Of a stretch of DNA of 64,000 bases, positions 26,120 to 62,908 are shown in pieces; the first letter of the stretch is position 1; each line of letters starts with the position of its first letter. The notes below the pieces were generated by a model. That model was not told the origin of the DNA and did no database searches. It saw only the letters and a list, made by a program, of their open reading frames with translations. The DNA is from a virus (taxonomy: Duplodnaviria > Heunggongvirae > Uroviricota > Caudoviricetes). The stretch covers positions 26,348-90,347 of IMG/VR virus record IMGVR_UViG_2832576359_000003; one strand, given 5' to 3'. The position numbers and the translations under genes are program-made.

Positions 26120-26556
26120 GCTAGGGCGACAAGGGGCCTCGCGCCCTGACAGCAGAGTCTGCCGAGAACGTCGCGCGCGCGGCGCCGAGGCGAACGTCGA
26201 TGGTGTGGCCGCATCGGTAGGCGGGATCCGGGCTCTGCTGTGAGGGTGGAAGGTACGGCGGCTTCAAAAATGTGACCTCCGGTGTGCGGGTTCGAGTCCC
26301 GATCGCTGGCCGAGACTGAAGTTGGTAGACGCAGACGAAATAGCCATGTGCGAAACGTCGGAGCACGGCTGGTGTGCAGTTGGAACGCACACCCGAGGTC
26401 ACCCTCATCGAACTGCGCTTGCATCGCAGTCCACCAGTTGGCAGCGTCGGGAGACGCCCCCCGTCAGCACGAGTGCTGCGGTCTGTGTCTGATCCTATCG
26501 GGTCCATACCGCAGTAGTTTTGCATTGGTCTCCTACGGCTTCCCCGGTCGAAGGAT

Positions 26557-36154: not shown

Positions 36155-38125
36155 TTAAGCGGCCGCGGCAGCACGCAACTCGTGCGCGAAATTAGCGCGG
36201 ATGATTGCGGCGGCGACCGGCGGGCAGACGCTGTTGCCGATCATGCGGACCTGAGCCGACTTGGAAAGGCGCTTGCCGTTGTGCTCGGGGTCGAGCACGT
36301 ACGAATCGGGGAAGCCCTGGGCACGCGCGAGCTCGCGCGGCGTGAGCATGCGCATGCCGATATCGACGATGGCGTAGTCCTCGCCGTGGATCGTCACGAG
36401 ACCGAGCCGGTCTTTCGTCGGGATCGTGTGCATCGGGTCGCGCAGATCCTGATGCTGGCCGCCTTCGCTGTAGTACTTGATCAGGAAGGCGCGCACCTCG
36501 GCGTGATGCAGTCCACCGGCGCTTACCGTGTGGAGCGGCTCGGCGACCGGTTGCGCGCCGCCGTTGTTGCGCAGCTTCACGAGGTGCGACACGGCGATCG
36601 CCGAATCGGCCTTCGCGGTGATTGTGGCAGCGGGCTCGCTCGCGTCGCGCGGCCGAGACTGACCAGCGCGGCCGCCACAGCCGACGATCTGAGCGGTGAC
36701 GAGCGCGTGGTGATCCTGCGTCGTGACCGTGCTCATCGGGTATGCGAGGTCCGCGCCGGGCGTTTCATTACCGCCGTAGTGCTTCGCGAGGAAGGCGGAC
36801 ACGAGGGCGTGCTTCGCGCCGCCCGCGACGACGGTGCCGAGTGGCTTGTCGATACCCGGCGCGCGCGGCGCCTGCCCGGCGCGCTCGCCGTATCCCGTCT
36901 GAATCAGCGTTGCGGCGACGATCTGCTGCTGGCCGCCGCTCGCAGTGATCGTGCTCAGCGGCGCTTTTGCGGATCGACCGGCCTTAACGCCCACGCGTTC
37001 CTTGTTGTGCTGCGCGAGGAATGCAGTAACGAGCGCTTGCTCGCTGCGGTTCGCGCCCGTGACGGTCGCGAGCGGTGCGTCGGCGCGCGCGCCGCGGTCT
37101 GAGCCCTGGTGCGTGACGTGCATCAAGGTCGGCGCGACCATCGCAAGGCTTCCACCGCGCGGATACGCGGTGATCGTGCGCAATGGTTCGCTCCCGCTGT
37201 GGACCGTGTCGCGGCCGTTGTAGTGCGCAATCGGAACGATGAAAGGGTCGGCGCTGTTCACGACGAACTTCATGATGCCGCGCGCGATACGCCGCAGCGT
37301 CGCATCCTTGAGCGGGCGATCGCGCTCGAAGATCGAGGGGCACGGGATCGACCAGTCGATGCATTCGGCCGCGGTGCGGTACGGCGCGAGCGCGCCGCGC
37401 GCGACGGCGTCCGAGTTCGGCGCGCCGTGCGTGGGCGCGGGCCAAACGATCGGAAGCCCATCGCGGCGCGCGAACAGATAGAGGCGCTTGCGAATCGTCG
37501 GCGTGCCGAAGTCGCACGCGCGCAGCACGCGCCATTCGACCTTGTATCCGAGCCCCGCGTAGAGTCGCTCCATCGGGAAGTCGGCGCCGAGCGTCTCGAA
37601 GATCTCGGGCACGTCCGGGTGCTCAGGCGACAGGCCGGACGAGAGCGCATCGACGAACGCGCGGAACGTGCGGCCTTTCTCGGCCTTGATCGGTTGGCCG
37701 TGCTCGTCGACCGGGCCCCAATCCTGGAACTCCTCGACGTTTTCGAGCGCGAGGCAGCGCGGCACCTGGAAGGTCCCCCACTTCAGGGCGATCCAGGCCA
37801 GCCCGCGGATCTTCTGGTCGCGCGGCTTGCCGCCCTTCGCCTTCGAGTGATGCTTGCAATCGGGGCTGAACCAGGCAAGCCCGATCGGCATCTGGTTCGT
37901 GATGAAGCCCGGGTGCACCGCAAAGACGTCTTCGCGATAGTGCCGCGTCGTCGGGTGGTTGGCCGCGTGCATCGCGAGCGCTTCGCCGTCGTGGTTGATG
38001 GCGATATCGACCGGGCGCCCGAAGGCCATCTCAATGCCCGTGCTCGCGCCGCCGCCGCCGGCGAAGTTATCCACGATGAGTTCGTGCCCCAAGTCGAGCT
38101 CGAAACTGATCTCGTCGCGCTTCAT
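36155..38125 (-). CDS. DNA cytosine-5 methyltransferase with 8 tandem ~35-aa repeats in the variable region
   Basis: Motif I DNFAGGGG, PC-like SPDCKHHS, ENV(EEF) motif, C-terminal MIGNSVCPPVAAAI. Repeat unit PLxTITAxG..HALVTAFLAKHYG occurs 8 times between roughly aa 300 and 580. Confidence 0.7.
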   Translation of the reverse strand: MKRDEISFELDLGHELIVDNFAGGGGASTGIEMAFGRPVDIAINHDGEALAMHAANHPTTRHYREDVFAVHPGFITNQMPIGLAWFSPDCKHHSKAKGGKPRDQKIRGLAWIALKWGTFQVPRCLALENVEEFQDWGPVDEHGQPIKAEKGRTFRAFVDALSSGLSPEHPDVPEIFETLGADFPMERLYAGLGYKVEWRVLRACDFGTPTIRKRLYLFARRDGLPIVWPAPTHGAPNSDAVARGALAPYRTAAECIDWSIPCPSIFERDRPLKDATLRRIARGIMKFVVNSADPFIVPIAHYNGRDTVHSGSEPLRTITAYPRGGSLAMVAPTLMHVTHQGSDRGARADAPLATVTGANRSEQALVTAFLAQHNKERVGVKAGRSAKAPLSTITASGGQQQIVAATLIQTGYGERAGQAPRAPGIDKPLGTVVAGGAKHALVSAFLAKHYGGNETPGADLAYPMSTVTTQDHHALVTAQIVGCGGRAGQSRPRDASEPAATITAKADSAIAVSHLVKLRNNGGAQPVAEPLHTVSAGGLHHAEVRAFLIKYYSEGGQHQDLRDPMHTIPTKDRLGLVTIHGEDYAIVDIGMRMLTPRELARAQGFPDSYVLDPEHNGKRLSKSAQVRMIGNSVCPPVAAAIIRANFAHELRAAAAA

Positions 38126-42027: not shown

Positions 42028-43278
42028 GTGACGACCCTCCACCTGGGTGACTGCCTCGCGGTGCTCGCCGGCATGCCCGACGCCTCGTTCGATTCGATCG
42101 TCACCGATCCGCCGTACCACCTGACGAACAACGGGGGCGGCCCCGCGCGCGGCTCGGACAACGCGTACACGCGTGCGCGCGCCGGCGCCTCGTCGCGTGG
42201 CTTCATGGGCCTCGAATGGGACGGCGGTGATATCGCCTTCCGCCCGGACGTGTGGCGCGAGTGCTTGCGCGTGCTCAAGCCCGGTGGTCATCTGCTCGCG
42301 TTCTCGGCCGCGCGCACGTACCACCGGATGGCCTGCGCGATCGAGGACGCGGGCTTCGAGGTCCGCGACCAGGTCATGTGGATCTATTCGTCCGGCTTTC
42401 CAAAGTCGAAAAACCTCGACGGCGAGTGGGAGGGGTGGGGCACTGCGCTCAAGCCCGCGCACGAGCCGTTGTGCCTGGCGCGCCGGCCACTCGAGGGGAC
42501 GGTGGCCGAGAACGTCGCGCGCTATGGCGTTGGTGCTCTGAATATCGACGGTTGCCGTGTCGCGTCCGACGAGCTGGTCGCTCGCATCGAGCACGCCGAC
42601 ACCGGCGCGCAGCGTGGCTACGGCGGCGGCATACGCGGGGGCACGCGCCGATCGGCTGGCACCGATGGCCGCTGGCCCGCCAACGTCATGCACGACGGCT
42701 CCGACGCCGTTCTGGCCGCGTTCCCGTCGGCGCCCGGTCAGCAGGGGCGTGCCGTCAACGATGGGGCTGCCGCGTCGAACAGCGTCTACGGCGCGATGCG
42801 CAACGTTACGGCCGCGCCGGCGCCGCGCGTTGAAGTGGACACGTCCGCCGCGCGCTTCTTCTATTGCGCGAAGGCGTCGCGCGCGGACCGCAACGCGGGC
42901 TTGCCGTCAGGCGACGTGCCGGCGGTGTCGCAGGACTCGACGATGCGCGCTTGCGAGACAGCCGATTGGGCCGCGCGCAATGGCAACCATCACCCGACCG
43001 TCAAGCCGACATCGCTGATGCAGGAGCTTTGCCGCTTGGTCACGCCACCCGGTGGCCACGTCCTGGACCCGTTCATGGGTTCGGGATCGACTGGCCGTGG
43101 CGCCGTGCTCGAGGGGTTCGAGTTCAGCGGCATCGAGCTTTCCGCCGCATACCACGCGATCGCGCGCGCCCGGATCGACGACGCCGCGCGGGCTCGCGCA
43201 GAGCTTGTCCGCGCCGCCGCTGATGAATCCCGCGCGCGCTCGCAACTGGATCTCTTTGAGGTGCCCGATGTCGTGTGA
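42028..43278 (+). CDS. DNA methyltransferase, N6-adenine/N4-cytosine family (beta class)
   Basis: DPPY motif near the N-terminus (IVTDPPYHL) and FxGSG near the C-terminus (DPFMGSGSTG). Confidence 0.75.
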   Translation: MTTLHLGDCLAVLAGMPDASFDSIVTDPPYHLTNNGGGPARGSDNAYTRARAGASSRGFMGLEWDGGDIAFRPDVWRECLRVLKPGGHLLAFSAARTYHRMACAIEDAGFEVRDQVMWIYSSGFPKSKNLDGEWEGWGTALKPAHEPLCLARRPLEGTVAENVARYGVGALNIDGCRVASDELVARIEHADTGAQRGYGGGIRGGTRRSAGTDGRWPANVMHDGSDAVLAAFPSAPGQQGRAVNDGAAASNSVYGAMRNVTAAPAPRVEVDTSAARFFYCAKASRADRNAGLPSGDVPAVSQDSTMRACETADWAARNGNHHPTVKPTSLMQELCRLVTPPGGHVLDPFMGSGSTGRGAVLEGFEFSGIELSAAYHAIARARIDDAARARAELVRAAADESRARSQLDLFEVPDVV

Positions 43279-44640: not shown

Positions 44641-44964
44641 GTGAGAAAGGTTTTCAAGTACGAGGTCGCGCGACGCGGCCAAGAGCCTACGGTGCTCCGT
44701 CTTCCGGGGTCTGCAACGCTATCGCGCGTCGACGTGCAAGACGGCCGCTTCATGGTCTGGGGGGGCGTCCCGACCGGTTTGCCGGCTGACACCGAATTCG
44801 AGGTGTTCGTGGTCGGCACTGGCGATCCGATCCCCGACGACGTCTTCGTGTTGAACACGTTCTTCGAAGGGCCTTTGGTGTGGCACGCGTGCGTACGCAT
44901 CCTCGCCGTCCCGTCGCACCTTCACGTCGGAAAGACGCACAGCGGGGTGACGCATGGTTGCTGA
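44641..44964 (+). CDS. Hypothetical protein (107 aa, GTG start)
   Basis: GTG preceded by a GAGAGGG RBS-like sequence. The N-terminal extension of the long ORF is rejected. Confidence 0.35.
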   Translation: MRKVFKYEVARRGQEPTVLRLPGSATLSRVDVQDGRFMVWGGVPTGLPADTEFEVFVVGTGDPIPDDVFVLNTFFEGPLVWHACVRILAVPSHLHVGKTHSGVTHGC

Positions 44965-46363
44965 CCAACACGGCTTTACGTTGCGTTCGATCAGCGACCT
45001 GCTTCCGTACGCGCGGAACTCCCGCACGCATAGCGACGACCAGGTCGCGCAGCTCGCCGCGTCGATCGATGAGTTCGGGCTGGTCGGCGCGATCGTCGTG
45101 CGCGACGGCACGATCGCGAAGGGGCACGGCACGCTCGCCGCGGTGCGAAAGCTGATCGAGGCGGGGAAGGGCATCTATCCGCCGCCGGGCCGCTCGCAGG
45201 GCGCTGATGCCTATCCAAATGGCCTTGTGCCGGCGATCGATGCGTCGGGTTGGTCTGATGCGCAGTTCCGCGCGTACGTCATCGCGGACAACAAGCTCGC
45301 GCTGAACGCCGGGTGGGATCTGGACATGCTCCGGATCGAACTCGAGGAGTTGCAGACCGAAGGCTTCGATCTCTCGCTGACGGGCTTCGAGCTCGACGAG
45401 ATCAAAGACCTTCTCACGCCCGAGCAGCTCGACCCGAACGGCAAGGACCCCGATGCCATTCCAGATGTGCCGCCCGATCCGCATTCGGTGCTCGGGGATG
45501 TGTGGATCCTGGGCGCGCACCGGGTGATGTGCGGCGACTCCACGATGCTGGATTCGTGGGACACGCTGATGGCCGGCGAGATGGCCGATATCGTCTGGAC
45601 CGATCCGCCGTACAACGTCGCTTACGAGGGCGTGGCCGGCAAGATCAAGAACGACGATATGGGCGACGAGCAGTTCGCGCAATTCCTGCTTGACGTCCAC
45701 ATCGCGCTGTTCTCGATCATGAAGCCCGGTGCCGCCATCTATGTCGCGCACGCGGATTCCGAGGGCTACAACTTCCGCAGGGCGTTCAAACAAGCGGGGC
45801 TCAAGCTGGCCGGCTGCCTGATCTGGCGCAAAGACCAGTTCGTCCTTGGCCGCTCGGACTATCAGTGGATGCACGAGCCAATCCTTTACGGCTGGAAGCA
45901 GGGCGCTGGGCACCGCTGGTTTGGCGGACGCAAGCAAACCACTGTGCTCGAGTATGGCGAGGGCTCTCCGTTCGAACAGCAGGCCGACGGTCGCTGGGTC
46001 GTGCGCGTGGGGAATCAGACGTTCGTCGTCGACGGCGCCGCGAAGGTTGAGCGCATGGAGTCGTCGCTCGTGTTCCACGAAAAGCCCGCGCGCTCGGCGC
46101 TGCATCCAACCACCAAGCCAGTCGGCCTGGTCGCGAAGTTCCTGCGCAACAGCGCGCGCCACAACGACATCGTCGTCGACGCGTTCGGCGGCTCCGGATC
46201 GACGCTGATCGCGTCTGAAGAAATGGGCATGTGCGCACGCCTGATGGAGCTTGACCCCAAGTTCGTCGACGTGATCTGCCAGCGCTACTACGCATTCACC
46301 GGCCGCGTGCCGGTCAACGCTCGCACAGGCGAGGAATTCCCCGTGAAGGAGAAGCAGCAGTGA
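44954..46363 (+). CDS. ParB-like nuclease domain fused to N6/N4 DNA methyltransferase
   Basis: N-terminal ParB/Srx-like block (LLPYARNSRTHSDDQVAQLAASIDEFGLVGAIVV). MTase motifs DPPY (VWTDPPYNV), HPTTKP and GGSGST. Confidence 0.75.
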   Translation: MVADQHGFTLRSISDLLPYARNSRTHSDDQVAQLAASIDEFGLVGAIVVRDGTIAKGHGTLAAVRKLIEAGKGIYPPPGRSQGADAYPNGLVPAIDASGWSDAQFRAYVIADNKLALNAGWDLDMLRIELEELQTEGFDLSLTGFELDEIKDLLTPEQLDPNGKDPDAIPDVPPDPHSVLGDVWILGAHRVMCGDSTMLDSWDTLMAGEMADIVWTDPPYNVAYEGVAGKIKNDDMGDEQFAQFLLDVHIALFSIMKPGAAIYVAHADSEGYNFRRAFKQAGLKLAGCLIWRKDQFVLGRSDYQWMHEPILYGWKQGAGHRWFGGRKQTTVLEYGEGSPFEQQADGRWVVRVGNQTFVVDGAAKVERMESSLVFHEKPARSALHPTTKPVGLVAKFLRNSARHNDIVVDAFGGSGSTLIASEEMGMCARLMELDPKFVDVICQRYYAFTGRVPVNARTGEEFPVKEKQQ

Positions 46364-47960: not shown

Positions 47961-48671
47961 ATGTTCAAGAGCTTTCCAAAGAACGCTACAGGCCGCGATT
48001 TCGTCGTCGGTGATATCCACGGTGCCTACAGCCGTCTCGAAGCCGCCATGGCCCGCATATCGTTCGACGCGTCGAACGATCGCCTGTTTTCTGTGGGTGA
48101 TTTGATCGATCGCGGGCCGGAGTCGGAGCGCGTGCTTGAGTTCCTCGCGCAGCCGTGGTTCCACGCGGTTCGCGGCAATCACGAAGCCGTCGCCATCGAC
48201 TACGCCCGCGGCGAGGTTTCGGATGAGGATCAGACGCAGCACGGCGGATCGTGGTTCGTCGGAATGCCGCAGCTCGCGCGCACGGCCTACGTCGACGCCT
48301 TCGATGTGCTGCCCAATGGCATCGAGATCGACATCGGCGACGAACTCCGTGTCGGCATCGTGCACGCCGACTGTCCGCTGGCGCACTGGGACGACTTCAA
48401 AGCCCGGGCAGGGGAAGGCTTCGATTCGCGTGATCGCGAGGCGCTTCTCAGCGCTTCGATGTGGTCACGCGCGCGCGTCAAACATGGGGATACCACATGG
48501 GTTGACGGTGTCGCCGCGGTGTTTGTTGGGCACACGCCGGTAAAGAGCGTGCTCGAGCTGGGCAACGTCGTGCATATCGACACGGGTGCCTTTCTCGAAG
48601 GCCGACCCCTGACGGTTATTCAACTGCGGCCGGCCGACGGCCTCGTCTACCAGGTGGCGGCGCAGGTATGA
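47961..48671 (+). CDS. Ser/Thr protein phosphatase (lambda PPase-like metallophosphoesterase)
   Basis: GDIHG, GDLIDRG and GNHE metal-binding motifs. Confidence 0.8.
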   Translation: MFKSFPKNATGRDFVVGDIHGAYSRLEAAMARISFDASNDRLFSVGDLIDRGPESERVLEFLAQPWFHAVRGNHEAVAIDYARGEVSDEDQTQHGGSWFVGMPQLARTAYVDAFDVLPNGIEIDIGDELRVGIVHADCPLAHWDDFKARAGEGFDSRDREALLSASMWSRARVKHGDTTWVDGVAAVFVGHTPVKSVLELGNVVHIDTGAFLEGRPLTVIQLRPADGLVYQVAAQV

Positions 48672-50621: not shown

Positions 50622-51752
50622 TTGATGAGTGAAAAGAAAGTGATTGCGCCGTCGATCGGCCGCAAGGTCTGGTACGTGCCGCTCGCACGCGATGGCGAGA
50701 TCAAAACGAACGACGAGGTTCAGCCGCTCGACGCCACGGTCATCTACGTGTGGTCCGACAGCATGGTCAACCTCGACGTGACGGACCATGTCGGGGCGCG
50801 CCACGTTCGCACGAGCGTCACGCTGATCCACCCCGGGGACGCCGAATTGCAATGGGGCGGCTTCGCGAAATGGATGCCCTACCAGGTCGGCCAAGCGAAC
50901 AAGGAAGATGGCCGTCGAGTCGTGGGAATCGACCCCGTCGGAAAGCTCGAGACGACGGAATCGGCGCCGCGCGGCGGCGACGCGCAGACGCGCATCGGCC
51001 CGAGCGTTGCTCGCGAGGCCATCGAGGCGCTGTTCGAGCGCGTCGACTGGAAATTTGAACAGCCGTCCGGGAGCACGTCGACGTTCGCGCATGCGTTCCT
51101 CGACGGCTTCTATCTCGCGTCCGGTCATTCGGCGTGCGTGTCGCCGGAAAATTTCAACGCTTTCATGGGGCGCAATATCGCGCTGGAACAGGCGCGCCAG
51201 AAGGTCTATGACAAGCTGTGGGAACTGGAGGACTACCTGCTGCGCGCGCGCATCAACGGGCGCTTGGGCGACATCACGTACGCGCTTGGCGAGGTGACCG
51301 TCAGAATCGACCAAGATATGCGGTGCCACATCTGGACCCCGGGCGAAGTGACGATCGATGGCAATGTGAACTGCACCGGCTCTGTGGTCGCCGCGGCCGG
51401 TACGTTGGCGCCCGAAAAGCATTCGACTGGCGTCGCGGCGCGCCCGCAAGCGCATTCCGACATGGATATCGGCGGCGCGATCGCGGCGCTGAAGGATGGC
51501 GAGCGCGTCGCGCGGCGCGGCTGGAACGGAAAGGACATGTGGCTCGCGCTGTCGCCGGGCGTGAGTGCGGTCCCTGCCGACAAGTTCTGGGCTCGGCCGA
51601 ACCGAGCCTACGCGGCGTCGACCGAATCGGGAGCGGCCGACGTGCTGCCCTCTGTGACGATGAAGACCGCGACGGGTGAGATCCTGATGGGCTGGCTCGC
51701 CTCGCAGACGGACTTGCTCGCGAACGACTGGTTCGTGCTGGAAGGGCAGTGA
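50622..51752 (+). CDS. Gp49-like domain + C-terminal DUF2829 (Tad2-like) domain protein
   Basis: Middle block FAHAFLDGFYLASGHSACVSPENFNAFMGRNIALEQARQKVYDKLWELEDYL is Gp49/66-like. C-terminal GGAIAALKDGERVARRGWNGKDMWLAL...DLLANDWFVL is the Trp-rich DUF2829 pattern. Confidence 0.45.
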   Translation: MMSEKKVIAPSIGRKVWYVPLARDGEIKTNDEVQPLDATVIYVWSDSMVNLDVTDHVGARHVRTSVTLIHPGDAELQWGGFAKWMPYQVGQANKEDGRRVVGIDPVGKLETTESAPRGGDAQTRIGPSVAREAIEALFERVDWKFEQPSGSTSTFAHAFLDGFYLASGHSACVSPENFNAFMGRNIALEQARQKVYDKLWELEDYLLRARINGRLGDITYALGEVTVRIDQDMRCHIWTPGEVTIDGNVNCTGSVVAAAGTLAPEKHSTGVAARPQAHSDMDIGGAIAALKDGERVARRGWNGKDMWLALSPGVSAVPADKFWARPNRAYAASTESGAADVLPSVTMKTATGEILMGWLASQTDLLANDWFVLEGQ

Positions 51753-53135: not shown

Positions 53136-53385
53136 GCTTGAATGCCGCGCGCGCTTCCTTGCGCGACATGTAGAGCTCGTTTTGCGAGGCGAGGACGCGA
53201 ATCTTGCCGGACAAAATCACGCAATCGAATCCGTTTTCGTCGGGCTCGCGCGTTTCGATGAGTTCGACCTTGCACACGACCTGGTGGCATTGCATGTTGA
53301 GTCCGACCGTGTAGCGCGTGCTGTTTGTGCTTTCCATTTGCGTCTCCGTTGCGTTCTCGATGGTTGAATCATGCGCATCAATCAA
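53131..53385 (-). CDS. Hypothetical protein
   Basis: 84-aa ORF. Confidence 0.3.
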   Translation of the reverse strand: MIDAHDSTIENATETQMESTNSTRYTVGLNMQCHQVVCKVELIETREPDENGFDCVILSGKIRVLASQNELYMSRKEARAAFKP

Positions 53386-53453: not shown

Positions 53454-55919
53454 ATGACCGAAATGCTCCATGCGGTAAGGCCGCGCGCTGTGCTGCTGCT
53501 CAAAGCGGTATCGAAGAAGCAGGTCTACGTGCCTGCGTACACCCGCCACGACGGCACGGTGGTGGTGGGCCACTACGCCACGGTGAATGTCGCCATCGAC
53601 CACAGCGACACGAAGGTCTTGGCGGGCCGAGGTTCGCACTCTCAACGCCAGGCGCACGCAAAACTCGCGCAGCACGACTGGTTCAACGCGATGGATCACG
53701 GGGACCGCGTGAATCTTCTGCTTCACCACGCCACGAAGATCCAAGACAAGGCATCGCGCGCGGCCGCCGTGTCAATGTGGCGAACCGCGGCGCTGGCTGG
53801 CCGCAACCCGACGCCGGCGCAGTGGCGCGCGTTCCATGCGCTCCCCAGCGATCGCAAGCTCGCGCTGCTCGACGAGGTGCGGCAGACCGGGCGCACTGAT
53901 CATCTGAACTCGCCGCCCGTGGCAGCGGACGCCGAGCATCCGAATTCGCCGGCCACGCCGACGCCAGTTCCCTCGGCCGCACCTCCGCGCGTCGTCGCGG
54001 CGGAAACGTCCGGGCCGGAATCTCGCGCGCGCGAAACCGACACGCCGAGCGACGGCGATACGAAGACGGTCGACGGCGTGACGTACGTCCTGCAGGGCGG
54101 CCGCTGGCATCGTCAGACGCCCGAGAGCGAACAGGCCGAACAGCCGGCCTCCACGCCGCCCGAGCAGCCTGTTGCGCCAACGCCCTCGGCGGCCGACCGC
54201 GATCGGCACGCCGGGGCGATGCGCGCGGTCGTTGCGCCGACATTCCCCGAGACGAGCGCCTCGAATGCAGGGTGCACGCGCCGGGTCGCCGCACTGCGTG
54301 CCATGGCCGAGGCGGGAGATGTCGACGGGATCTCGAGTTTCTCGACGTCGCGCACGCGCGCGAACTACGCCCGCGTCGACGACTACCGGGCCGCGCTGCT
54401 GGCCGCGGCGCAGAACCTGACGCCTGCCGAGGCTCAGCGCGCCGTTGAAACACCGCCGCCGGCGCCCCCGCAGCTCTCCGGCGCGAACATGCAAAACACG
54501 GCGCTGCTCGCCGCTCAACGCAAAATCAACATGCTGCACGACGCCGCGCGCGCGGCCGACCCGGTTGCAGCGATTCAGGCGATCAACACGTCCCGCGGCA
54601 ACCGGTACCTGGACGCGGCCGACAATTACAAGCGCGCGCTGCTTGCACACTTCGGCGTCGACATCGCTGGCGCGCCCGTGCCGGGCGTCAGTGCCGAAGG
54701 AGAAGCGTCGCGCGCGCCGCGAATCGTTGCGGCTCGCGAGGCACCAGCGCCGGCCGCGGCCCCGCCGCGCGAGCAGCCCGCGGAGACCGCTGTTCCCGAG
54801 GCGGAGAGCCCGCCCCCGTTGCCCGACTCACAGAACCCCGCGATCGCCGCGAACCCGCTCGGGTACTCCGAGGTCGTGCTCGGGTTCGTGCCGCGCCCCA
54901 ACGTGCCGTTGAGCGTGCGCACGAACATGCCTGGTGTGCAGTTTCCCGATCCGCGCATGGCCGAGTTGAACCGCCGGTACCTCGCGCAGCCGACCTCGCT
55001 GCAGCAGCGCGCTCGCGAATATCAGGCGGGAAATTGGGCGCCGCGCACACCTGAGGTGATCGCGGCGGAGGCAGCAGCTGCGGCCGAGCGCCAGCGCGCC
55101 GAGCAAGAGGCTATCCGGCGCGCCGCGGCGGCGGTGGAGGCGCGCCTAGGATCCATCGAACAGATCTTCCGGCCGCGCGCGGCGGTCGGTGCAAACGTCC
55201 GCGTCCTCAACTCGCACATCTCCGACGTCGATGCGCAGCGCGTGCTCGGTGTTCCGAAGGAGCAGGCTGACGTCATGTTCAAGCAGATGGTCGTCGACTA
55301 CGGCTTCGGCGTGACGTTCGCCATCACTGCGACCGCCTCGCCGGCGCAAATCGAGGTCCAGTATCACGGATCGGACGGAACATCGATCACGCGTCGATTC
55401 AAACGAGACACCGCCGGTGGCCCGCTGTCGGTGTACCACGCGTATTTCAAGGCCGGGAGCACGGGCGGCGGGTCAGGAAAACAGCTGTTCCGCAACTCGA
55501 TGGGGGTCTACAAGGCGCTCGGCGTGGCCGAGGTATCTGTGTACGCCAATATCGACGTGGGGGGCTATGCCTGGGCGAAGTTCGGTTATCTGCCGAAGAA
55601 TTGGGGAAACCTCCGCGCGACGCTGCGCAATCGCTTGTCATCGATCGCAAACGGGTCAATCTCGCGCGCGACGCAAGGGCGCCGGTCGGTGCAGTTGCCC
55701 GCACTGGATCCGTCGATCGTTGCAAAAATCAACACCGTGCTCGACAGCGACTCTCCGGAGACGCTCTGGGTTATCGCCGACATGAAGGTCGGCGAGCGCG
55801 CGGTCGGGAAGGAGCTTTTGCTCGGCACGGATTGGAACGGCGTGATGAAGCTGTCCCACGAGCGAACCATGCTAAGGTTCGCGAAGTACGTCAGTCCCGA
55901 TAGGAGTCAAGCACAGTGA
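53454..55919 (+). CDS. Large multidomain protein with GNAT-like C-terminal domain
   Basis: N-terminal LLLKAV...YTRHDGTVVVGHYA motif shared with the next gene. Pro/Ala-rich linkers. C-terminal YHAYFKAGSTGGGSGKQLFRNSMGVYKALGV resembles GNAT motif A. Confidence 0.45.
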   Translation: MTEMLHAVRPRAVLLLKAVSKKQVYVPAYTRHDGTVVVGHYATVNVAIDHSDTKVLAGRGSHSQRQAHAKLAQHDWFNAMDHGDRVNLLLHHATKIQDKASRAAAVSMWRTAALAGRNPTPAQWRAFHALPSDRKLALLDEVRQTGRTDHLNSPPVAADAEHPNSPATPTPVPSAAPPRVVAAETSGPESRARETDTPSDGDTKTVDGVTYVLQGGRWHRQTPESEQAEQPASTPPEQPVAPTPSAADRDRHAGAMRAVVAPTFPETSASNAGCTRRVAALRAMAEAGDVDGISSFSTSRTRANYARVDDYRAALLAAAQNLTPAEAQRAVETPPPAPPQLSGANMQNTALLAAQRKINMLHDAARAADPVAAIQAINTSRGNRYLDAADNYKRALLAHFGVDIAGAPVPGVSAEGEASRAPRIVAAREAPAPAAAPPREQPAETAVPEAESPPPLPDSQNPAIAANPLGYSEVVLGFVPRPNVPLSVRTNMPGVQFPDPRMAELNRRYLAQPTSLQQRAREYQAGNWAPRTPEVIAAEAAAAAERQRAEQEAIRRAAAAVEARLGSIEQIFRPRAAVGANVRVLNSHISDVDAQRVLGVPKEQADVMFKQMVVDYGFGVTFAITATASPAQIEVQYHGSDGTSITRRFKRDTAGGPLSVYHAYFKAGSTGGGSGKQLFRNSMGVYKALGVAEVSVYANIDVGGYAWAKFGYLPKNWGNLRATLRNRLSSIANGSISRATQGRRSVQLPALDPSIVAKINTVLDSDSPETLWVIADMKVGERAVGKELLLGTDWNGVMKLSHERTMLRFAKYVSPDRSQAQ

Positions 55920-56104
55920 ACGTCATTTTTGAGCACGACGAGGAGAATCCCGTGCCGGCCGACGCGGCCGACGGGATGCAAGACCTCATGGCCGAGCTCG
56001 ACGAGCCGTCGTCGACGTCCTGGGACATCGCGGTCGAAAACCCGCCGCACGAGGGCTATGACGGACCTTTGCCGCACCCTAGCTTGCCGAAAGCGCCGGG
56101 GTGA
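55916..56104 (+). CDS. Small acidic hypothetical protein
   Basis: 62-aa ORF followed by a terminator. Confidence 0.25.
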   Translation: MNVIFEHDEENPVPADAADGMQDLMAELDEPSSTSWDIAVENPPHEGYDGPLPHPSLPKAPG

Positions 56105-56117
56105 ACCTCACCCTATG

Positions 56118-56150
56118 CCGCCGAGAAGCCCGCCGCGCGCGGGCTTTTTT
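56118..56150 (+). terminator. Rho-independent terminator
   Basis: GAAGCCCGCCGCGCGCGGGCTTTTTTGCG. Confidence 0.6.
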
Positions 56151-56230
56151 GCGTCCGAATTTTCCCTCGCTCGACGGTCGTCGTGATGCAAACATGCTGT
56201 CACTTTCCTGATCCAACCGTGGGGTATCGC

Positions 56231-56839
56231 ATGAGCAAAGCAAAGCCGGTCCTGTTCCTGAAGGCGCACGTCGGCTCCTACACTCGCTCGGACGGCACCG
56301 TTGTGCAGGCGCACGAAACGAGCGCGCGCTCGGCGGTACCGCGCCACCGCTCGATCGTGGAAGCGGCAACGTATTCGGGAGGCCACCACGAGGAACACAG
56401 CGTGAGCCATTTGCCCAATCAGTCGAGCCGGGGGATTCGTGTGGGCGCCGGCGACAAGGCGCACGCGATGGAGCACGCGCGCGCGACGTTCTCGGCGGCC
56501 GGTCTCAAGCGCAAAGGTACGGACACTATCTCGGGGGCCGAACAGTACGAGTCGGCCTCGCACGCCGGCGAAATTTGGCACAACAACGGCACGGTGCATG
56601 TAGTGGTGCAGCGCAAGTCGAAAGCCGCGGCGCCGGCCGCTTCCGGTGGACTCCACCACACGGACCTGCGCGAAGGCGATGAAATCGAGGGGCCGGACGG
56701 CGAGAAACACGAGTATTCGCACACGCAGCGCGGCGTGGGCCGGATGGTCGTCCACACCGGCGCCGGGCACACCTTCCCGACCGAGCGCGACGGCACGCTG
56801 AAAGGCTTCAAGAAGACCGGGCACAACTTCGCCGACTGA
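56231..56839 (+). CDS. Hypothetical protein sharing its N-terminal motif with the 53454 gene
   Basis: MSKAKPVLFLKAHVGSYTRSDGTVVQAHET parallels RAVLLLKAVSKKQVYVPAYTRHDGTVVVGHYAT. His-rich. Confidence 0.4.
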   Translation: MSKAKPVLFLKAHVGSYTRSDGTVVQAHETSARSAVPRHRSIVEAATYSGGHHEEHSVSHLPNQSSRGIRVGAGDKAHAMEHARATFSAAGLKRKGTDTISGAEQYESASHAGEIWHNNGTVHVVVQRKSKAAAPAASGGLHHTDLREGDEIEGPDGEKHEYSHTQRGVGRMVVHTGAGHTFPTERDGTLKGFKKTGHNFAD

Positions 56840-56892: not shown

Positions 56893-57096
56893 ATGTCCGC
56901 ACGCATTCAGATCGTCGTCGTCGATTCGAAAGGCAATTCGTTCGACCCCAACTCGCTCGCGCACGTCTACACGAACGACGACGACGGAAACCGCCTGACC
57001 GATACCTGCTTTGACGGCGCCGTCACCCGAGTCAAGACGTGCACCTACGATACGAGCGGCGCGAAGCTGACCGAGTCGGCCTGGGTCGTGCAGTGA
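56893..57096 (+). CDS. Small hypothetical protein
   Basis: 67-aa ORF. Confidence 0.3.
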   Translation: MSARIQIVVVDSKGNSFDPNSLAHVYTNDDDGNRLTDTCFDGAVTRVKTCTYDTSGAKLTESAWVVQ

Positions 57097-57149: not shown

Positions 57150-59768
57150 GTGCAGTCTGTCGAGTGTGAGTTTCCTGAACTGTTCGAAGGGCAGGAACGC
57201 ATCGCGAGTAGCCTCGCGCGTTTCAATCTCGTGCACGGCGGCGAGCAGTGCGGCAAGAGCACGACGGCGATCGACGTCCTGCTGCTCTCGCAATTTGGCG
57301 CGCTCAACGGGTATCACGTCGCCTTCTGCGTGCCCGACGAGGCCGCTGTAACGGTCGCCAAGCGGCGCGTCTTCTCCCTCATTCACCACCTCGTCGACGG
57401 GCGTCCCGATCGGCCCCGCGTCGAACTAATCACGGGTGGCTCGATTCGCTTCGTGCGGCTCGATGACGAGCACCTTGAGCTTTGGGACCACCTCGCGCTG
57501 ATCGTCGTCGACGACGCGCAGCTCGTGCCGCGCATCGAGCCGCTCTGGTATGACGTGCTCGAACCTGCGCTCGGGCGCTCGCGCGGCTCGGCCTGGATCT
57601 TCGGAAAGCCCCGCGGCGCGCGCGACGGATTCGCGAGCCTCGCGCGGAACGCCGCCGGCGGCGTGCTATGGGCGGCATACCGCATGCCCACGGAAGAAAA
57701 CCCGTATTTCGACCGCGCGCGCCTCGAAGCGGACCGCGAGAAATTCACAGCAGACCAGTTCGCGCAGGAACGCGAGGGCGTCTTCGTCGACGTGCCGGTG
57801 GCGCTCACCGCGTCACAGTCGATCATCAAGCCTGGCGAGACGTTCCGCGAGTGGTGCATCCGGCTCGGCGAAGAAGGCCTCCACGTCGACGAAAAGCCAT
57901 TCACGCTCGACGATCGCCCGGCGATGCACTTCGTCTACGACCTGATCCCCTCGACCGCCGAAGAGGCGTTCCAGCGCATCGACGTGATCATGAAGTGCAC
58001 GCAGGTCGGGTTCACGGTGTTCGAAATGATGGCGATGCTGTATCTCGCGCTTCGCTTCGCGCCGGCGAAGATCGGCAGCTTCATGCCGTCGAAGGATCTC
58101 GCCGCCGGCAAGTCGTCGAATCGGTTCATGGGCATCGTGCGCACGATGCCGGCCGTGCACTCGATGATGACCGAGACGGCCGCCGAGCACGGCAAGTCCG
58201 GCGAGGGCAACGTCCTTACGCGGAACCTCGGCAACTCCATCTTCTATTTCCTCTGGACGTCCGGCAAGACCACGACCGAGTCGAACCCGATGGACGTGGT
58301 TTCGTTCGACGAAGTGCAGGAAATGAAGATCGCGGCGATGGAGAAAACCCGCGAGCGTATGTCGGCGTCGGCGATCCGCTACACGCTGATGGGATCCACC
58401 GCGAATTGGCCGGACGAGGATATCCACTGGTGGTTCAAGAAGGGCACGCAGTACCAATTTCACACGGACTGCCCCTCATGCCACACAGGGCAGGTTCTCG
58501 ACGATCACTTCCCCAAGTGCGTGGGCTTTGATCCCACGGCGCTGCGTTGGAACCCGCGCGAGGCCGAGGCGGGCATCGTGGGCGAGTACCGGTACCGCTG
58601 CCACGCGTGCGGCGGATGGATCGATGACCCGCAGATCGGCCGATGGATCGCGAAATTCCCAGAGGCTTCGATCCGCTCGCTCCACTTCCCACAGTTCCTG
58701 TCCCCGACGATCTCGCCGCGCGAAATGTACGAGGCGTATCGCGACGCCAAGGACATGAAGAACTTCTACAACCGGAAGCTCGGAAAGCCGTACGTCGATC
58801 CCACACAGGTTCCGGTCAACCTCGAGATGCTCGCCGCGTGCGCGGCGCTCGGGATGAAGCTCGGCGTCGTGTGGGAGGAGCGGGGCCGCGACACGTACAT
58901 GGGCATCGACCAGATGGGGCAATTTAACGCGGTCTTGATCGCGAAGCGGCTGCCGACTGGTCACATGGCGATTATCCACGCTGAGGAAGTCTACGACGCA
59001 GACCCGTTCGCGCGCTGCTCGGTGCTGCTCGAGCGCTATGGCGTGCGCGTTTGCGTCGTCGAAACGCTGCCGAACTACAACGACGCGAAGCGCTTCGCCA
59101 ACCGCCACCCGGGCATCGTGTTCCTCGCCGGCTACGGCAACATGGAAAGCGACATGCTGCGGTGGGGCGACGATCGGGCGAACCGCTCGGAGCGCCGCAC
59201 GGACGACGAGGACCGCGACCAGTACACGGTCACGCTCGACCAATACAAGTCGATGCAGGTTGCCTTCGCGCGGATCTCGAAGCTGGTTTGCGTGTTTCCT
59301 GATCCGAAGGCCCTTATCCAGGAGCTGACCGACGACGGGGACAACGGCAAGGGCGAGCGATCGTTGCGCCCGATCCTCGAGGAGCGCGTGTTTAAGCACT
59401 TCACGCGCACGGCGCTGATCGCCGAGCGCGACGAGGAGGAAAAGAAATTCCGGCGCCGCGTGGTCAAGGTCGGTATCGACCCTCACTTCTCGTACGCGTT
59501 CATGCTGCTCAACGTCGCATGGGCTCGCGCGCACGGTACGGCGTCGTTTCTATTCCCTGACGAGGCGGAGGAGGTTGAAGTGCCCCAAGGAAGCATTGCG
59601 ATCGCGCAGACGCGCGTTCTGGCGGATATCAAGCGGGAGACTGAGGAGGCGGGGGCAGAGAAGTGCGCCGGCTGCGCATCGTTCGACGAGGAGCGGGGGT
59701 GGTGCGAGGAGCGCGAGGTGCTGGTGAGGCCGAGCAGCCCCGCGTGCATCTTGTTTATGGATCGGTAG
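57150..59768 (+). CDS. Terminase large subunit (GpA family) with ~250-aa N-terminal extension carrying a second P-loop
   Basis: GpA-like Walker A KCTQVGFT near aa 283 and a Zn ribbon (CPSCHTGQ...CHACGG). Additional N-terminal Walker A GGEQCGKST and Walker B LIVVDDAQ. No stop codon over 872 aa. GTG start. Confidence 0.6.
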   Translation: MQSVECEFPELFEGQERIASSLARFNLVHGGEQCGKSTTAIDVLLLSQFGALNGYHVAFCVPDEAAVTVAKRRVFSLIHHLVDGRPDRPRVELITGGSIRFVRLDDEHLELWDHLALIVVDDAQLVPRIEPLWYDVLEPALGRSRGSAWIFGKPRGARDGFASLARNAAGGVLWAAYRMPTEENPYFDRARLEADREKFTADQFAQEREGVFVDVPVALTASQSIIKPGETFREWCIRLGEEGLHVDEKPFTLDDRPAMHFVYDLIPSTAEEAFQRIDVIMKCTQVGFTVFEMMAMLYLALRFAPAKIGSFMPSKDLAAGKSSNRFMGIVRTMPAVHSMMTETAAEHGKSGEGNVLTRNLGNSIFYFLWTSGKTTTESNPMDVVSFDEVQEMKIAAMEKTRERMSASAIRYTLMGSTANWPDEDIHWWFKKGTQYQFHTDCPSCHTGQVLDDHFPKCVGFDPTALRWNPREAEAGIVGEYRYRCHACGGWIDDPQIGRWIAKFPEASIRSLHFPQFLSPTISPREMYEAYRDAKDMKNFYNRKLGKPYVDPTQVPVNLEMLAACAALGMKLGVVWEERGRDTYMGIDQMGQFNAVLIAKRLPTGHMAIIHAEEVYDADPFARCSVLLERYGVRVCVVETLPNYNDAKRFANRHPGIVFLAGYGNMESDMLRWGDDRANRSERRTDDEDRDQYTVTLDQYKSMQVAFARISKLVCVFPDPKALIQELTDDGDNGKGERSLRPILEERVFKHFTRTALIAERDEEEKKFRRRVVKVGIDPHFSYAFMLLNVAWARAHGTASFLFPDEAEEVEVPQGSIAIAQTRVLADIKRETEEAGAEKCAGCASFDEERGWCEEREVLVRPSSPACILFMDR

Positions 59769-60338: not shown

Positions 60339-62072
60339 TCATGGCATGATCCCGGTCCAGTCGATGCTGCCTGGCTCGGGGCACTCCCACGACATGGCAA
60401 GGCGATTGCGCATTTGCGCAAGTGTCGTCGTCCGTACCAGTTTCCCATCACGAAAGATCGGCTTAAGCGAGCCGGTATCGAACACGGTAGGGTCTTGCCG
60501 GTCGTACAGCACGTAATCGTCGTCAACGCGGCGCACGCACACCAATCCCTTCGCGGACTTCTTCGTGCCGTCGTCGGTTGCCGGATCCTTGTAAATCTCT
60601 ATCGACTCGCCGCCGACCTCGGCATAGATCGCCTTCAGCGCGAAGCCGAATGTATCGCGTGACACCATGTTGTACGTGTACGAGCCGATGCCGAAAACGA
60701 CGTTGTTCGACGCGAAGCCCTTGTCTGCCAGACGGCGCAGGATGCGCACGCCACGCTCGAGTGTGATCGAATCGCCGTAGATCAGGCCTACGTGACTGTC
60801 GAGTACCTTGAAGCCCTTGTCTGTTCCCGTGCCGCCGTAGATATCCCAGAGGCATTCGACCGCGCCCTTGCGCTCGGCAGCCGTGATCCGACGACCCATG
60901 CCTGCGCGTCCGCACGTGACATATTTTCCTTCTTCGTCGACAACCGGTTGCCCATCGTCGTCGCACATAAGCTCGTCATTTCGGTAACCCGTCAGAATCT
61001 TCACCGGGTCGCCCGAGTCGGGCCTGAACACCACCTTGCACTGGCCGAGCGCATTTGGCCGGCGCGCGAGAATCTCGTCTTTGAGCTCGCGCGCGACGAC
61101 CGTGATCGTGTTCCAGAAATCGAACGAATCGGCGACGATCGAAATCATGCCTTCGGGATAGTCCTCGGTCACAAGCTCGCGGATCACTTCCTGCTCGGCG
61201 ACGCACCGCATTTGCTTCTCGGTGAAAATCTCGTTTCCGCGCTTGCGCTTGAGAGCCGCGAGCACGCGCAGAATCCGAAGCGTCATCACGCTGTGCTCGG
61301 TCGCCGGGATCGAACCCCCGATCAGTTCCTTATCTGCGTCGGCGCCGTAGAAGTCCTCGGCATAGTCGATAGCGGGGATCGTGTCGGTGCCGGTGAATGA
61401 GAGCAAGTGACCGAGGCCGCAACGCATCGCATCGTGCACGCCGCTCATGCCGCGCATCGAGAAATCGTGGCCTTGCCAGCTAACGAAGTCCTCGGGAGCA
61501 CCCGTGAGCCGCGCGAAGTACGTGAGCAGCTTGCGGAATTCAAAGGCAATCGTCGCGACCGTCGACGGCTTCCAGTTCTCGCAGCTGAATAGCGTCTCGA
61601 AGTACGTTGCGAGCCACGAATGCTCGCCTCGGGCAATAAAGATGATCGGCGGCACCTTGATATTCACGCGAGAGCCTTCGGGGAGTGCCCGGATCTCGAG
61701 CGGCAAATATCCGAGGTCGTGCAAGGCCTCGAGCTTCGCCGTCGACACTGCATCCGGTCCGAGTGCGGTGTCCATGCGGCGCTTGAACTTGCGCACGGCC
61801 TTGGCCTTGGGAACGTCGAAGAATCGCTTCCCGAACAGGTCAATGACGAATTCCTGAATCCAGCCCTGCTGGCCGAGCCACACGACCTTTCCGTCGAACA
61901 GCTGCGGCAGGACCGGCGCGTACTTAGCCGAGCGCGGCGTGAAGTTCGCGACGAGCATGTCTAATCCGGCCGGGTACATGCCCGGGTGCCCGGTCTTGTA
62001 GAAGTCGGCGAGGTTGAACGGCACGAGGCCGTTTTGCTTCTCGAGTACGTCGTGATCGATGGGTGCGTTCAT
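60339..62072 (-). CDS. Nicotinamide phosphoribosyltransferase family protein (NadV/NAMPT; possibly Namat-like)
   Basis: N-terminal NLADFYKTGH(P)GMYP (NAMPT TDSYK-type motif), GTDT, IADSFD and FGIGS blocks typical of the NAMPT family. Confidence 0.75.
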   Translation of the reverse strand: MNAPIDHDVLEKQNGLVPFNLADFYKTGHPGMYPAGLDMLVANFTPRSAKYAPVLPQLFDGKVVWLGQQGWIQEFVIDLFGKRFFDVPKAKAVRKFKRRMDTALGPDAVSTAKLEALHDLGYLPLEIRALPEGSRVNIKVPPIIFIARGEHSWLATYFETLFSCENWKPSTVATIAFEFRKLLTYFARLTGAPEDFVSWQGHDFSMRGMSGVHDAMRCGLGHLLSFTGTDTIPAIDYAEDFYGADADKELIGGSIPATEHSVMTLRILRVLAALKRKRGNEIFTEKQMRCVAEQEVIRELVTEDYPEGMISIVADSFDFWNTITVVARELKDEILARRPNALGQCKVVFRPDSGDPVKILTGYRNDELMCDDDGQPVVDEEGKYVTCGRAGMGRRITAAERKGAVECLWDIYGGTGTDKGFKVLDSHVGLIYGDSITLERGVRILRRLADKGFASNNVVFGIGSYTYNMVSRDTFGFALKAIYAEVGGESIEIYKDPATDDGTKKSAKGLVCVRRVDDDYVLYDRQDPTVFDTGSLKPIFRDGKLVRTTTLAQMRNRLAMSWECPEPGSIDWTGIMP

Positions 62073-62092: not shown

Positions 62093-62908
62093 TTAGACCA
62101 CGGTGCAGCGATCGTCGCTGATCCAGTTGTTACGCGTGAAAACCTGCGCATATCCCTCGAGCAGCACGTCGAGTCCCTTGCTGAAAATGCCGTGTGTGAC
62201 GTAGAGGAAAAGCTGGTGGCGCGTGCCCTGCGTGTCCTGCTTAGCTTTGATGGCGCTCGCCAATTCGATAAAAGTCCGTCCACCGTCGCAGATGTCGTCG
62301 ACGACAAGCAAGGGCAATTCGGGAAGGTCGCCGAGGACCTCGGTGCCCGTGATCTGACCGGTTCGTGTGTCGCGCACCTTGTCCGCAAATACGACTTCCA
62401 GATCGAAGGCCGAGGCGAGCTTCAGGACGCGTTTGCGTGCCCCCGCATCGGGTGCCACTAGCGCGACCTTCGTGCCGATTCGGTCGATCACCGCCGAGAG
62501 AGGCAGAACCGGGTCGGCGATCTGGACACGCTCGAGCAGCGCGGGCACGACGTCGCTGTGCGGATCCTCAATGAGCACGCGGCTGTATTTCTGGGCGTTG
62601 ATCAGGTCACAAAACACCTTGGCGCTCAGCGACTCTCCCCGGTTGGCCACGCGATCCTGGCGTGCATAGGGGACATAGGGCATGTCAAGGATGATGCCGG
62701 CCGCCGGATAGGCGCGGCGCAGCGCGTCAGTGATCATGATCAGCGCCATGACGTCGGCCGAGCTTTTCAGTCCTGCGCTGATCAGCAGCCCGCGGGGCGC
62801 GACGGCGTCTGCCTGAACGGTTGCGTGGATCTCGCCACCGGGGAACGTGAGGGTCTTTACGTCGAGCTTCCTATAGCCTGTTTCGGTAACTACGGATACA
62901 TCGATCAT
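62093..62908 (-). CDS. Ribose-phosphate pyrophosphokinase-family protein (short Prs-like; possibly Adps-like)
   Basis: Prs N-terminal domain pattern and PRPP-binding loop (LLVVDDICDGGRTFIELASA). 271 aa, shorter than canonical Prs. Adjacent to the NAMPT-like gene. Confidence 0.7.
   Translation of the reverse strand: MIDVSVVTETGYRKLDVKTLTFPGGEIHATVQADAVAPRGLLISAGLKSSADVMALIMITDALRRAYPAAGIILDMPYVPYARQDRVANRGESLSAKVFCDLINAQKYSRVLIEDPHSDVVPALLERVQIADPVLPLSAVIDRIGTKVALVAPDAGARKRVLKLASAFDLEVVFADKVRDTRTGQITGTEVLGDLPELPLLVVDDICDGGRTFIELASAIKAKQDTQGTRHQLFLYVTHGIFSKGLDVLLEGYAQVFTRNNWISDDRCTVV

Follow-up and report, generated by a model that had tools for sequence, protein, structure and literature searches.

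A gene cassette beside a phage terminase gene in which a polyvalent-type protein with a predicted GNAT domain and a second, small protein share an N-terminal motif, a possible virion-loading tag

In phages T4 and P1 a short N-terminal element is found on several unrelated proteins that go into the head and are injected from there, namely the T4 proteins IPI-III and Alt and the Dar proteins of P1. Here we describe a cassette of genes on a 64,000-nucleotide stretch of phage DNA (the window, positions 26,348 to 90,347 of IMG/VR record IMGVR_UViG_2832576359_000003), in which a protein of 821 amino acids (aa) with a predicted GNAT domain at its end and a protein of 202 aa begin with the same motif, with a small acidic open reading frame (ORF) between them. 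The window is part of a 90,347-nt contig of Pararobbsia silviterrae and is phage DNA by its gene content. Two other groups of proteins come close to the cassette. In the sections covered here, Iyer et al. (2017, PMC5512222) describe a GNAT family in polyvalent proteins of phages and prophages, typically neighbouring an ADP-ribosyltransferase (ART) domain, and argue that such proteins are packaged. For polymorphic toxins, phage MuF toxins included, co-variation between the payload and the ORF downstream is a signature of immunity proteins; the work in question (Jamet et al. 2017, PMC5576092) makes no mention of GNAT domains as toxins. On balance we think it likely that the genes of the window form a late-operon cassette of virion-delivered effectors with a common address tag.

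The motif, LLKA-x(4/10)-YTRxDGTVVxxH, stands at the N-terminus of both proteins and is the sole part that they have in common. In the 821-aa protein (RKP44755/WP_121091302, 53454..55919; coordinates of the cassette, its parts and the genes up to and including the terminase are all on the plus strand) it covers aa 12-45, AVLLLKAVSKKQVYVPAYTRHDGTVVVGHYATVN (53487..53588), and consists of an LLLKA arm and a β-hairpin with YTRHDGTVV..H. In the 202-aa protein (RKP44757, 56231..56839) it covers aa 6-31, PVLFLKAHVGSYTRSDGTVVQAHETS (56246..56323), as placed by the motif match and the alignment of the family profiles. A pairwise BLASTP comparison of the two proteins gave 16/40 identities with an E-value of 2e-4, and the profiles of the two families aligned in hhalign with a probability of 97.6% and an E-value of 2.7e-12. 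A regular expression of the motif core, run over six frames of the whole window, matched both ORFs and one weak off-frame site only, and the leader is kept in 31 of the 41 homologues of the larger protein and in 9/9 of the smaller. Taken together, the BLASTP value, the rarity in the window, the conservation and the profile alignment imply that the likeness is more than chance. The shared motif had been noticed in the original prediction, which was made from the sequence alone, but some of its details need correction. The spacer between LKA and YTR, given there as 5-9 residues, is 10 residues in the 821-aa and 4 in the 202-aa protein, and the two genes, said to be adjacent, are separated by the conserved acidic ORF. 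Both ORFs are present at the coordinates that they were given and agree with NCBI gene calls; the length of 864 aa for the larger protein is reached only with a TTG further upstream, at 53325, as the start, and the NCBI gene starts at the ATG at 53454.

It was also possible to follow the motif to many other phage proteins. An exhaustive search with a hidden Markov model (HMM), a profile of 34 motif columns, found representatives of 1070 protein clusters with a threshold of E<=1e-3, of which 91 reached E<=1e-10; their lengths range from 44 to 2046 aa. The first copy of the tag lies no more than 60 aa from the N-terminus in 108 of the 130 new top carriers (83%). The carriers are of very different kinds and include proteins with InPase, PBECR3 and LPD3 together, ART-PolyVal, RadC, the anti-CBASS enzyme Acb1 and an XkdF-type prohead protease. 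As with the T4 proteins, the short N-terminal element is found on several cargoes of one phage. In the operon of locus L004, directly upstream of the terminase gene TerL, four different proteins start with the tag: one of 480 aa, an ART polyvalent protein of 1258 aa, a NUDIX and kinase-like protein of 512 aa and a small one of 181 aa. Locus L001 has three carriers (a 482-aa protein, P0003 and a small protein), L005 two, and the window two. In Pseudomonas phage Dolphis the carriers gp116 and gp119 flank the polyvalent protein gp117, and in Bordetella phage PHB04 the carriers gp032, an HD hydrolase, and the giant gp027 directly follow the portal gene. The suggestion that the common N-terminus works like an address is thus strengthened by up to four cargoes per operon, by the position near the N-terminus and by the neighbouring terminase and portal genes. 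No Pfam model was found for the leader motif, and a literature search for the motif strings found no mention of it.

Some N-termini are variants of the tag. The polyvalent proteins Dolphis gp117 (L007 9381-13049) and g129 of Yersinia phage fHe-Yen8-01 (L091 77-6517) have the LL(I)KA arm with a hairpin of the type G.YxLxxGRWH, and gp028 of PHB04 (L092 11632-12141) keeps the arm and has no recognisable hairpin. Judging from these sequences, what all forms of the tag have in common may be the LLKA arm. At the other end, two leader-bearing proteins (L004 1402-2844 and P0055) finish in ...DDVPF, which resembles the C-terminal tip DDDIPF of bacterial single-stranded DNA-binding protein (SSB); such an ending may mimic the SSB tail and bind host enzymes that interact with SSB.

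An indirect indication of a place in the virion comes from fHe-Yen8-01, in whose GenBank record the depositors have labelled the syntenic products g129, g130 and g131 as particle associated, apparently from experiment. The protein g129 is an ADP-ribosyltransferase toxin of 2146 aa, homologous to the polyvalent proteins of L004 and Dolphis, g130 is its partner of ~160 aa, and g131 begins with MLKAQIKGYMRRDGVYVKPH and is 44% identical to the NUDIX cargo of L004. Together with the head genes around these loci and the fusions of the GNAT domain to head proteins described below, the labels suggest that the family is probably virion-associated. By extension, the 821-aa and 202-aa proteins of the window would themselves be packaged in the virion.

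The C-terminal domain of the 821-aa protein, aa 571-821 (55164..55916), is a divergent domain that almost certainly has the GNAT fold (acyl-CoA N-acyltransferase-like), to judge from its structure model, in which the central mixed sheet and the β4-α3-β5-α4 core can be recognised. The original prediction had read a GNAT-like C-terminus from a motif A segment and had considered that the fold might be lacking; the segment falls inside the domain that models as GNAT. The Gly-rich β4-α3 loop GSTGGGSGK (55455..55481), which would be motif A, the loop for the acetyl-CoA pyrophosphate, is flanked in the model by strand 99-107 and helix 115-130. In the window the loop reads T-G-G-G-S-G-K (aa 670-676), and over 79 distinct viral relatives it is [Q29/T27/R19]-G66-x-G59-x-[G51/A20]-K72, a consensus of [Q/T/R]-G-x-G-x-[G/A]-K that fits the canonical acetyl-CoA loop pattern Q/R-x-x-G-x-G/A. 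The β5-α4 segment ANIDVGGYAWAKFGY (55545..55589), corresponding to the motif B region, contains Tyr705 at the start of α4, which is invariant in alignment A1 and nearly so in A2; the same segment doubled as the search pattern in IMG/VR, and in those loci its invariance is by construction. His662 in β4 and Tyr705, nearly invariant to invariant, are candidate catalytic residues. By the general layout of the fold, they would stand where the general base and acid of GNAT enzymes usually lie.

Sequence libraries do not detect this domain: neither the domain alone nor 35 homologues gave a Pfam match at E<=10, and its profile found nothing among PDB sequences. Since it also has a helical insertion of ~70 residues, in addition to N- and C-terminal extensions, it appears to represent a divergent family, presumably with acetyltransferase activity. 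A relaxed tblastn search of the domain against GenBank phages returned eight weak matches (E 4e-3 to 0.9), and the location of 4/8 in capsid protease, minor head or morphogenesis genes is suggestive and not evidence. A scan of IMG/VR that combined the pattern with tblastn found relatives on 243 viral contigs, among them direct fusions to proteins of the head. The domain is fused to MuF in contigs L032-L034 (to Phage_Mu_F in L032), to a portal protein and InPase in L021, and to a prohead S78 protease and an HK97-type capsid protein in L025, while in L014 it lies inside a ddrB-ParB polyvalent protein of 2023 aa. The gene of P0036, which has the GNAT domain and no leader, is located between a MuF gene and the genes of an XkdF-type protease and the major capsid protein.

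The acidic ORF between the two leader genes (55916..56104) encodes 62 aa with an isoelectric point (pI) of 4.05 and overlaps the end of the GNAT gene by 4 nt, its GTG start running into the stop codon in the sequence GTGA; it is a candidate immunity or chaperone partner. A homologue lies directly 3' of the GNAT-ending gene at 7/7 loci examined (the window, L001, L005, L006, L009, L010 and L013). These homologues have BLASTP E-values of 1e-4 to 1e-31, a pI of about 4 and 14-18 acidic against 1-8 basic residues. The genes that end in an ART exotoxin (L004, L008, Dolphis gp117 and fHe-Yen8-01 g129) are instead followed, 4/4, by an unrelated acidic family of ~160 aa. As in the MuF toxins, a variable C-terminus is combined with a small ORF downstream, the GNAT and the ADPrib_exo_Tox domain each having an ORF family of its own. 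Because payload and downstream ORF co-vary, we read the 62-aa protein as the cognate partner of the GNAT domain, and by analogy with the immunity proteins of polymorphic toxins it may plausibly be its inhibitor or chaperone. It has no Pfam, PHROGs or PADLOC match. In L006 (5722-6573), L010 (7112-7945) and the ERZ1426842 contig, the gene immediately before the GNAT-ending polyvalent gene is of the histone deacetylase family (PF00850), and in L001 (8395-9231) a SIR2 gene lies near it. This pairing of acetyltransferase and deacetylase genes in related loci suggests a functional link; in the window no deacetylase gene was found in the region of 43-53 kb.

In the mechanism that we propose, the proteins of the cassette would be synthesised late in infection, enter the head and leave it together with the DNA. 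Either by itself or within the N-terminal domain, the tag would serve as a portable address that brings unrelated cargoes to a single site, most likely the assembling head. The 821-aa protein would then consist of an N-module with a flexible LLKA arm, the hairpin and a helical bundle, followed by Pro/Ala linkers, repeats and the GNAT payload, and the translationally coupled 62-aa protein would, in the producing cell, most likely keep the GNAT domain inactive or chaperone it. A second, independent cargo would be the 202-aa protein, with the same tag on small His-rich modules. Once injected, the GNAT domain would acetylate a host target at the very start of infection; by analogy, candidate targets are components of translation, as for TacT and AtaT, or defence proteins, as for AcrVA5. 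That the tag is a virion address could well be true, and we hold this part of the reading with some reserve. It is a more tentative proposal that LLKA(H)V-YTRxDGTxVxxH is an undescribed and widely used portable virion-loading tag, and the GNAT domain with the 62-aa protein a new pair of injected acetyltransferase and inhibitor. Just as tentatively, every protein with such a tag ahead of a module would enter the head and be injected, the cargoes known so far including ART, GNAT, NUDIX, HD hydrolase, Acb1, InPase and nuclease domains.

Several observations weigh against virion delivery by way of a common address. The particle-associated label in fHe-Yen8-01 is also attached to the large terminase and may be unspecific, and a literature search found no publication that belongs to the record, so that the labels are supportive and not conclusive. 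The partner g130 itself has the label, and this favours a chaperone or a co-packaged inhibitor over an immunity protein that acts in the cytoplasm only. In P0014 and P0017 the tag is at aa 141 and 153 and thus not strictly N-terminal, and it is internal or present in more than one copy in 89 of the 130 top carriers. Furthermore, an AlphaFold2 (AF2) model of aa 1-160 of the 821-aa protein, with a predicted local distance difference test (pLDDT) score of 90.9, shows aa 1-18, including LLLKA, as flexible, two strands (19-26 and 40-47) joined by the YTRHDGTVV turn, and a helical bundle at aa 52-143. According to this model the hairpin of the 821-aa family is built into a folded domain, unlike the classical disordered targeting peptides. 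Finally, the core YTRxDGTxVxxH is also found in tandem in tiny signal-peptide proteins that lack phage features. These came from a word-indexed motif search that returned only proteins of <=90 aa; ten of 70-90 aa (P0051, P0052, P0054, P0056, P0058, P0060, P0064, P0065, P0068 and P0072) have 1-2 copies of V.V.GYTRKDGTxVxxHxR, most with an N-terminus like a signal peptide and several with a tail of the type NWST.GN.NP.TG, and no Pfam family was found in them in the scan. The hairpin alone is therefore not specific to phages and may be a generic structural or binding unit. The motif could accordingly be a β-hairpin block for oligomerisation or for binding of nucleic acid or metal, unrelated to virion targeting, and the repeated and distant copies, the folded domain and the many conserved His, Lys and Arg residues would all fit such a block. 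Still, the phage version of the motif adds the conserved LLKA(H)V arm and keeps near the N-terminus in most top carriers, and it stands at the front of unrelated enzymes whose genes are grouped in one operon next to those of terminase or portal. Internal copies are found where modules begin (P0145, P0147, P0151 and P0169), as expected if separate leader-bearing genes have fused, and we find the generic hairpin rather unlikely. Another explanation for copies ahead of each module in multi-module proteins is that arm and hairpin mark sites of protease processing (LLK|A), a maturation signal instead of an address, which overlaps in part with delivery by a tag. P0143 has three copies of the motif behind a prohead protease domain of XkdF type, the arm is predicted to be flexible, which is compatible with removal by a T4-type protease and proves nothing, and processing of polyvalent proteins has been proposed in the covered sections of Iyer et al. 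(PMC5512222). On the other hand, no protease gene was identified beside the locus, and in single-module proteins the motif is 3-15 aa from Met1, where cleavage would be useful only as a step like that of a capsid-targeting peptide; this explanation seems quite unlikely to us.

The place of action of the GNAT domain can also be seen differently. It may work in the producing cell or in the head, where it would acetylate phage proteins, polyamines or a head component, or it may belong to a toxin-antitoxin or superinfection-exclusion module. The proteins to which it is fused (portal, MuF, protease-capsid) are assembly components, related loci have a deacetylase or SIR2 gene nearby, and the tightly linked small partner ORF recalls the logic of toxin-antitoxin systems. 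Yet an ADP-ribosyltransferase exotoxin is interchangeable with the GNAT domain at the same position on the N-module, which is typical of effector payloads and not of assembly enzymes, and fusion to MuF or portal is an accepted signature of ejected toxins (PMC5576092 and the covered sections of PMC5512222). The architecture is also unlike that of GNAT toxin-antitoxin pairs, in which a ribbon-helix-helix (RHH) antitoxin is encoded upstream of a toxin of ~170 aa, and we consider action in the producer unlikely. From their position just upstream of TerL, the 202-aa protein or the 62-aa ORF might instead be the small terminase subunit (TerS), as no TerS was recognised and as the gene directly before TerL is a small leader protein in L004 and the acidic ORF in L006 and L010. 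But L006 and L010 have no small leader protein, and in L009 the acidic ORF follows the GNAT gene in a MuF/capsid module, away from any terminase. The 62-aa protein, with its pI and one basic residue, is not DNA-binding-like, and the 202-aa family consists of shuffled His-rich modules with no helix-turn-helix (HTH) signature. On locus distribution, pI and the missing HTH, a small terminase was therefore rejected as very improbable for either protein.

The remaining parts of the 821-aa protein are in keeping with a polyvalent protein. Its 41 homologues, of 557-1344 aa, have the N-domain, the repeats and the C-terminal domain in common. In the N-terminal domain, aa 1-155 (53454..53918), the leader hairpin is packed on the helical bundle, with the conserved stretches GxGSHSQRQAH..., HAT.IQ, SGWR and GRNPT.QW; no fold relative of the model of aa 1-160 was found. 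Long Pro/Ala-rich linkers had been proposed, and these two residues do make up 31% of aa 151-252 and 47% of aa 401-460. Within the linker lies a hairpin-like motif, GDTKTVDGVTYVLQGGRWHR (54054..54113), kept in homologues as GDTKTVxGxxYVLxxGRWHR, and Dolphis gp117 and fHe-Yen8-01 g129 begin with a relative of it, LLIKA with G.YFLQNGRWH. The middle region (54207..54662), defined by sequence and alignment A2, has two repeats of the form TSRxRxNYxxVDxYRxALLA (aa 292-319 and 373-400) and no assigned function; it is also present in P0034 and P0036, GNAT-bearing homologues without leader. The N-terminal regions of these two have a motif of HPRDxxGRF or GGxGGEF type where the YTR leader is missing, the former being, we presume, another short motif common in phage head-associated proteins. 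Next comes the segment QNPxIAANP..LGFVPRPNVPL..WPDPxMAELNRRYLAQ (54825..54989), from the consensus of A2 and with no assigned function, and then a charged stretch rich in Ala/Glu/Arg.

Longer homologues have insertions of ART-PolyVal (PF18760) in 6/35 and of WGR (PF05406) in 10/35, and in P0004 a ParB-like DGHHR stretch was read by eye from the sequence. Relatives with the same N-domain end in ADPrib_exo_Tox, an ADP-ribosyltransferase exotoxin, in place of GNAT. It is these insertions, and the swap of GNAT and ART, that make the protein a polyvalent effector of the kind described by Iyer et al. (2017). The resemblance to polyvalent proteins, already seen in the original prediction, thereby found support in the homologues, and from its domains the 821-aa protein very probably belongs to this phage family. 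The protein itself has GNAT as its single recognisable enzyme domain, next to uncharacterised modules. No Pfam LPD model matched the N-domain, the TSR repeats or the leader in the scans, and the UniRef name, 'Large polyvalent protein-associated domain-containing', is not traceable to any such model. Profiles of the N-domain and of the whole family found nothing among PDB sequences, and scans of the 821-aa protein against Pfam, PHROGs and PADLOC gave no match, a MuF domain (PF04233/PF06152) included. The His-rich 202-aa protein is modular as well: in its homologues P0043-P0050 three small modules are shuffled behind the same leader, and the protein has no match in Pfam, PHROG, PDB or PADLOC.

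The rightward gene block that holds the cassette is closed by the gene for the large terminase subunit TerL, of gpA type (57150..59768; PF05876 E 6e-15, phrog_675 E 9e-90). TerL has 872 aa, of which the additional N-terminal ~230 aa match another terminase PHROG (phrog_2), and shares 45% identity with the TerL of fHe-Yen8-01 over 886 aa. It falls into the Mecenats66/Dolphis/PHB04 group, a group with a headful-packaging clade of its own (PMC9503643). The genomes of this group are 90-95 kb; the source record, with 90,347 nt, fits this size and may therefore represent a whole phage genome and not an integrated prophage. Between the 202-aa gene and TerL lies an ORF of 67 aa (56893..57096) with a high GC content at third codon positions (GC3 0.85), no assigned function and 0 family matches in the Pfam, PHROGs and PADLOC scans. 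Across distant loci the gene order is recurrent: methyltransferase, sometimes a deacetylase, polyvalent gene, acidic ORF, variable cargo, TerL, morons and portal. A search of the locus with blastn and tblastn against 50,697 GenBank phages gave nothing at E<=1e-3.

The rest of the window includes genes for baseplate, tail fibre and endolysin (0-8 kb) and for RecT, an SbcC-like protein and several DNA methyltransferases (14-46 kb). The DNA methyltransferases number at least three (36155-38125, 42028-43278 and 44954-46363). Close to them are the N-terminal domain of a dATP/dGTP diphosphohydrolase, MazZ-like (PF18909, 46360-46743, +), and a calcineurin-like metallophosphatase (47961-48671, +), and taken together these gene families hint at DNA base modification; the equivalent region of Dolphis has an 'adenylosuccinate synthase' and a PAPS reductase. 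A 376-aa protein near the cassette (50622-51752, +), in which Phage_gp49_66 (PF13876) is fused to a domain like the Thoeris anti-defence protein Tad2 (PF11195, E 2.4e-20), is likely another anti-defence gene. Convergent with the terminase gene lies that of a NAMPT-like protein (60339-62072, -; phrog_448 E 2.5e-174), next to a PRPS-like one (62093-62908, -; phrog_619 E 3.5e-78). By family annotation only, the two appear to match the pair Namat and Adps of NARP1, a phage pathway of NAD+ reconstitution (bioRxiv 10.1101/2024.02.11.579819).

If the tag is a true virion address, it would give a simple sequence rule to predict the injected proteins of phages and a handle to engineer phages that deliver chosen proteins. 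It would also allow phages to shuffle anti-defence payloads by a mere exchange of what comes after the tag. The tag flags a large pool of proteins bearing Acb1, NUDIX, ART or GNAT domains that are likely to be anti-defence effectors of the first minutes of infection. The GNAT domain represents a sizeable head-associated family of putative acetyltransferases unseen by sequence libraries, and its small partner offers a direct route to the biochemistry. Should the tag be no more than a hairpin of structural use, the finding would come down to one further, ordinary member of the known polyvalent-protein class.

Compared with the T4 capsid-targeting sequence (CTS) and the Dar proteins of P1, the likeness lies in a short N-terminal element common to unrelated proteins of one phage, with packaging being deduced in our case. 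The tag differs from the CTS in that it is unrelated in sequence, longer (about 26-34 aa) and partly a folded hairpin, sometimes internal or repeated, and spread across many phage lineages. The TacT and AtaT toxins, which acetylate tRNA, and AcrVA5 have only 8-17% identity to the GNAT domain described here, which differs from them also by its helical insertion and terminal extensions and by being the C-terminal payload of an 821-aa protein. In TacAT and AtaRT a stand-alone GNAT toxin is preceded by its RHH antitoxin, whereas the partner here is downstream, acidic and of 62 aa. With the MuF polymorphic toxins (Jamet et al. 2017, PMC5576092) the 821-aa protein shares the plan of an N-terminal module for virion association, a variable C-terminal toxin and a small ORF directly downstream, but MuF is replaced by the leader and N-domain, and the gene is upstream of the terminase instead of downstream of the portal. 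The closest relatives are the polyvalent proteins in the covered sections of Iyer et al. (2017, PMC5512222). These are, as here, large multidomain proteins of phages and prophages encoded beside late or packaging genes, the 821-aa gene lying in the block that ends with TerL; they share with homologues of the 821-aa protein the combination of ART-PolyVal and a terminal GNAT domain, and their domain network includes InPase, PBECR3, LPD3, RadC and ddrB-ParB, which are found in other carriers of the tag. The 821-aa protein differs from them in having one recognisable enzymatic domain only, the GNAT families are likened by description only (e.g. BAR32501.1), and the shared N-terminal leader is absent from those sections. 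The 821-aa protein is thus best filed in the phage polyvalent-protein class, for which GNAT domains have already been reported. Three things are new, as far as found: the N-terminal tag common to several proteins and how widely it occurs, the strict coupling of the GNAT family to a small acidic ORF, and the occurrence of this family fused directly to portal, MuF and protease-capsid proteins.

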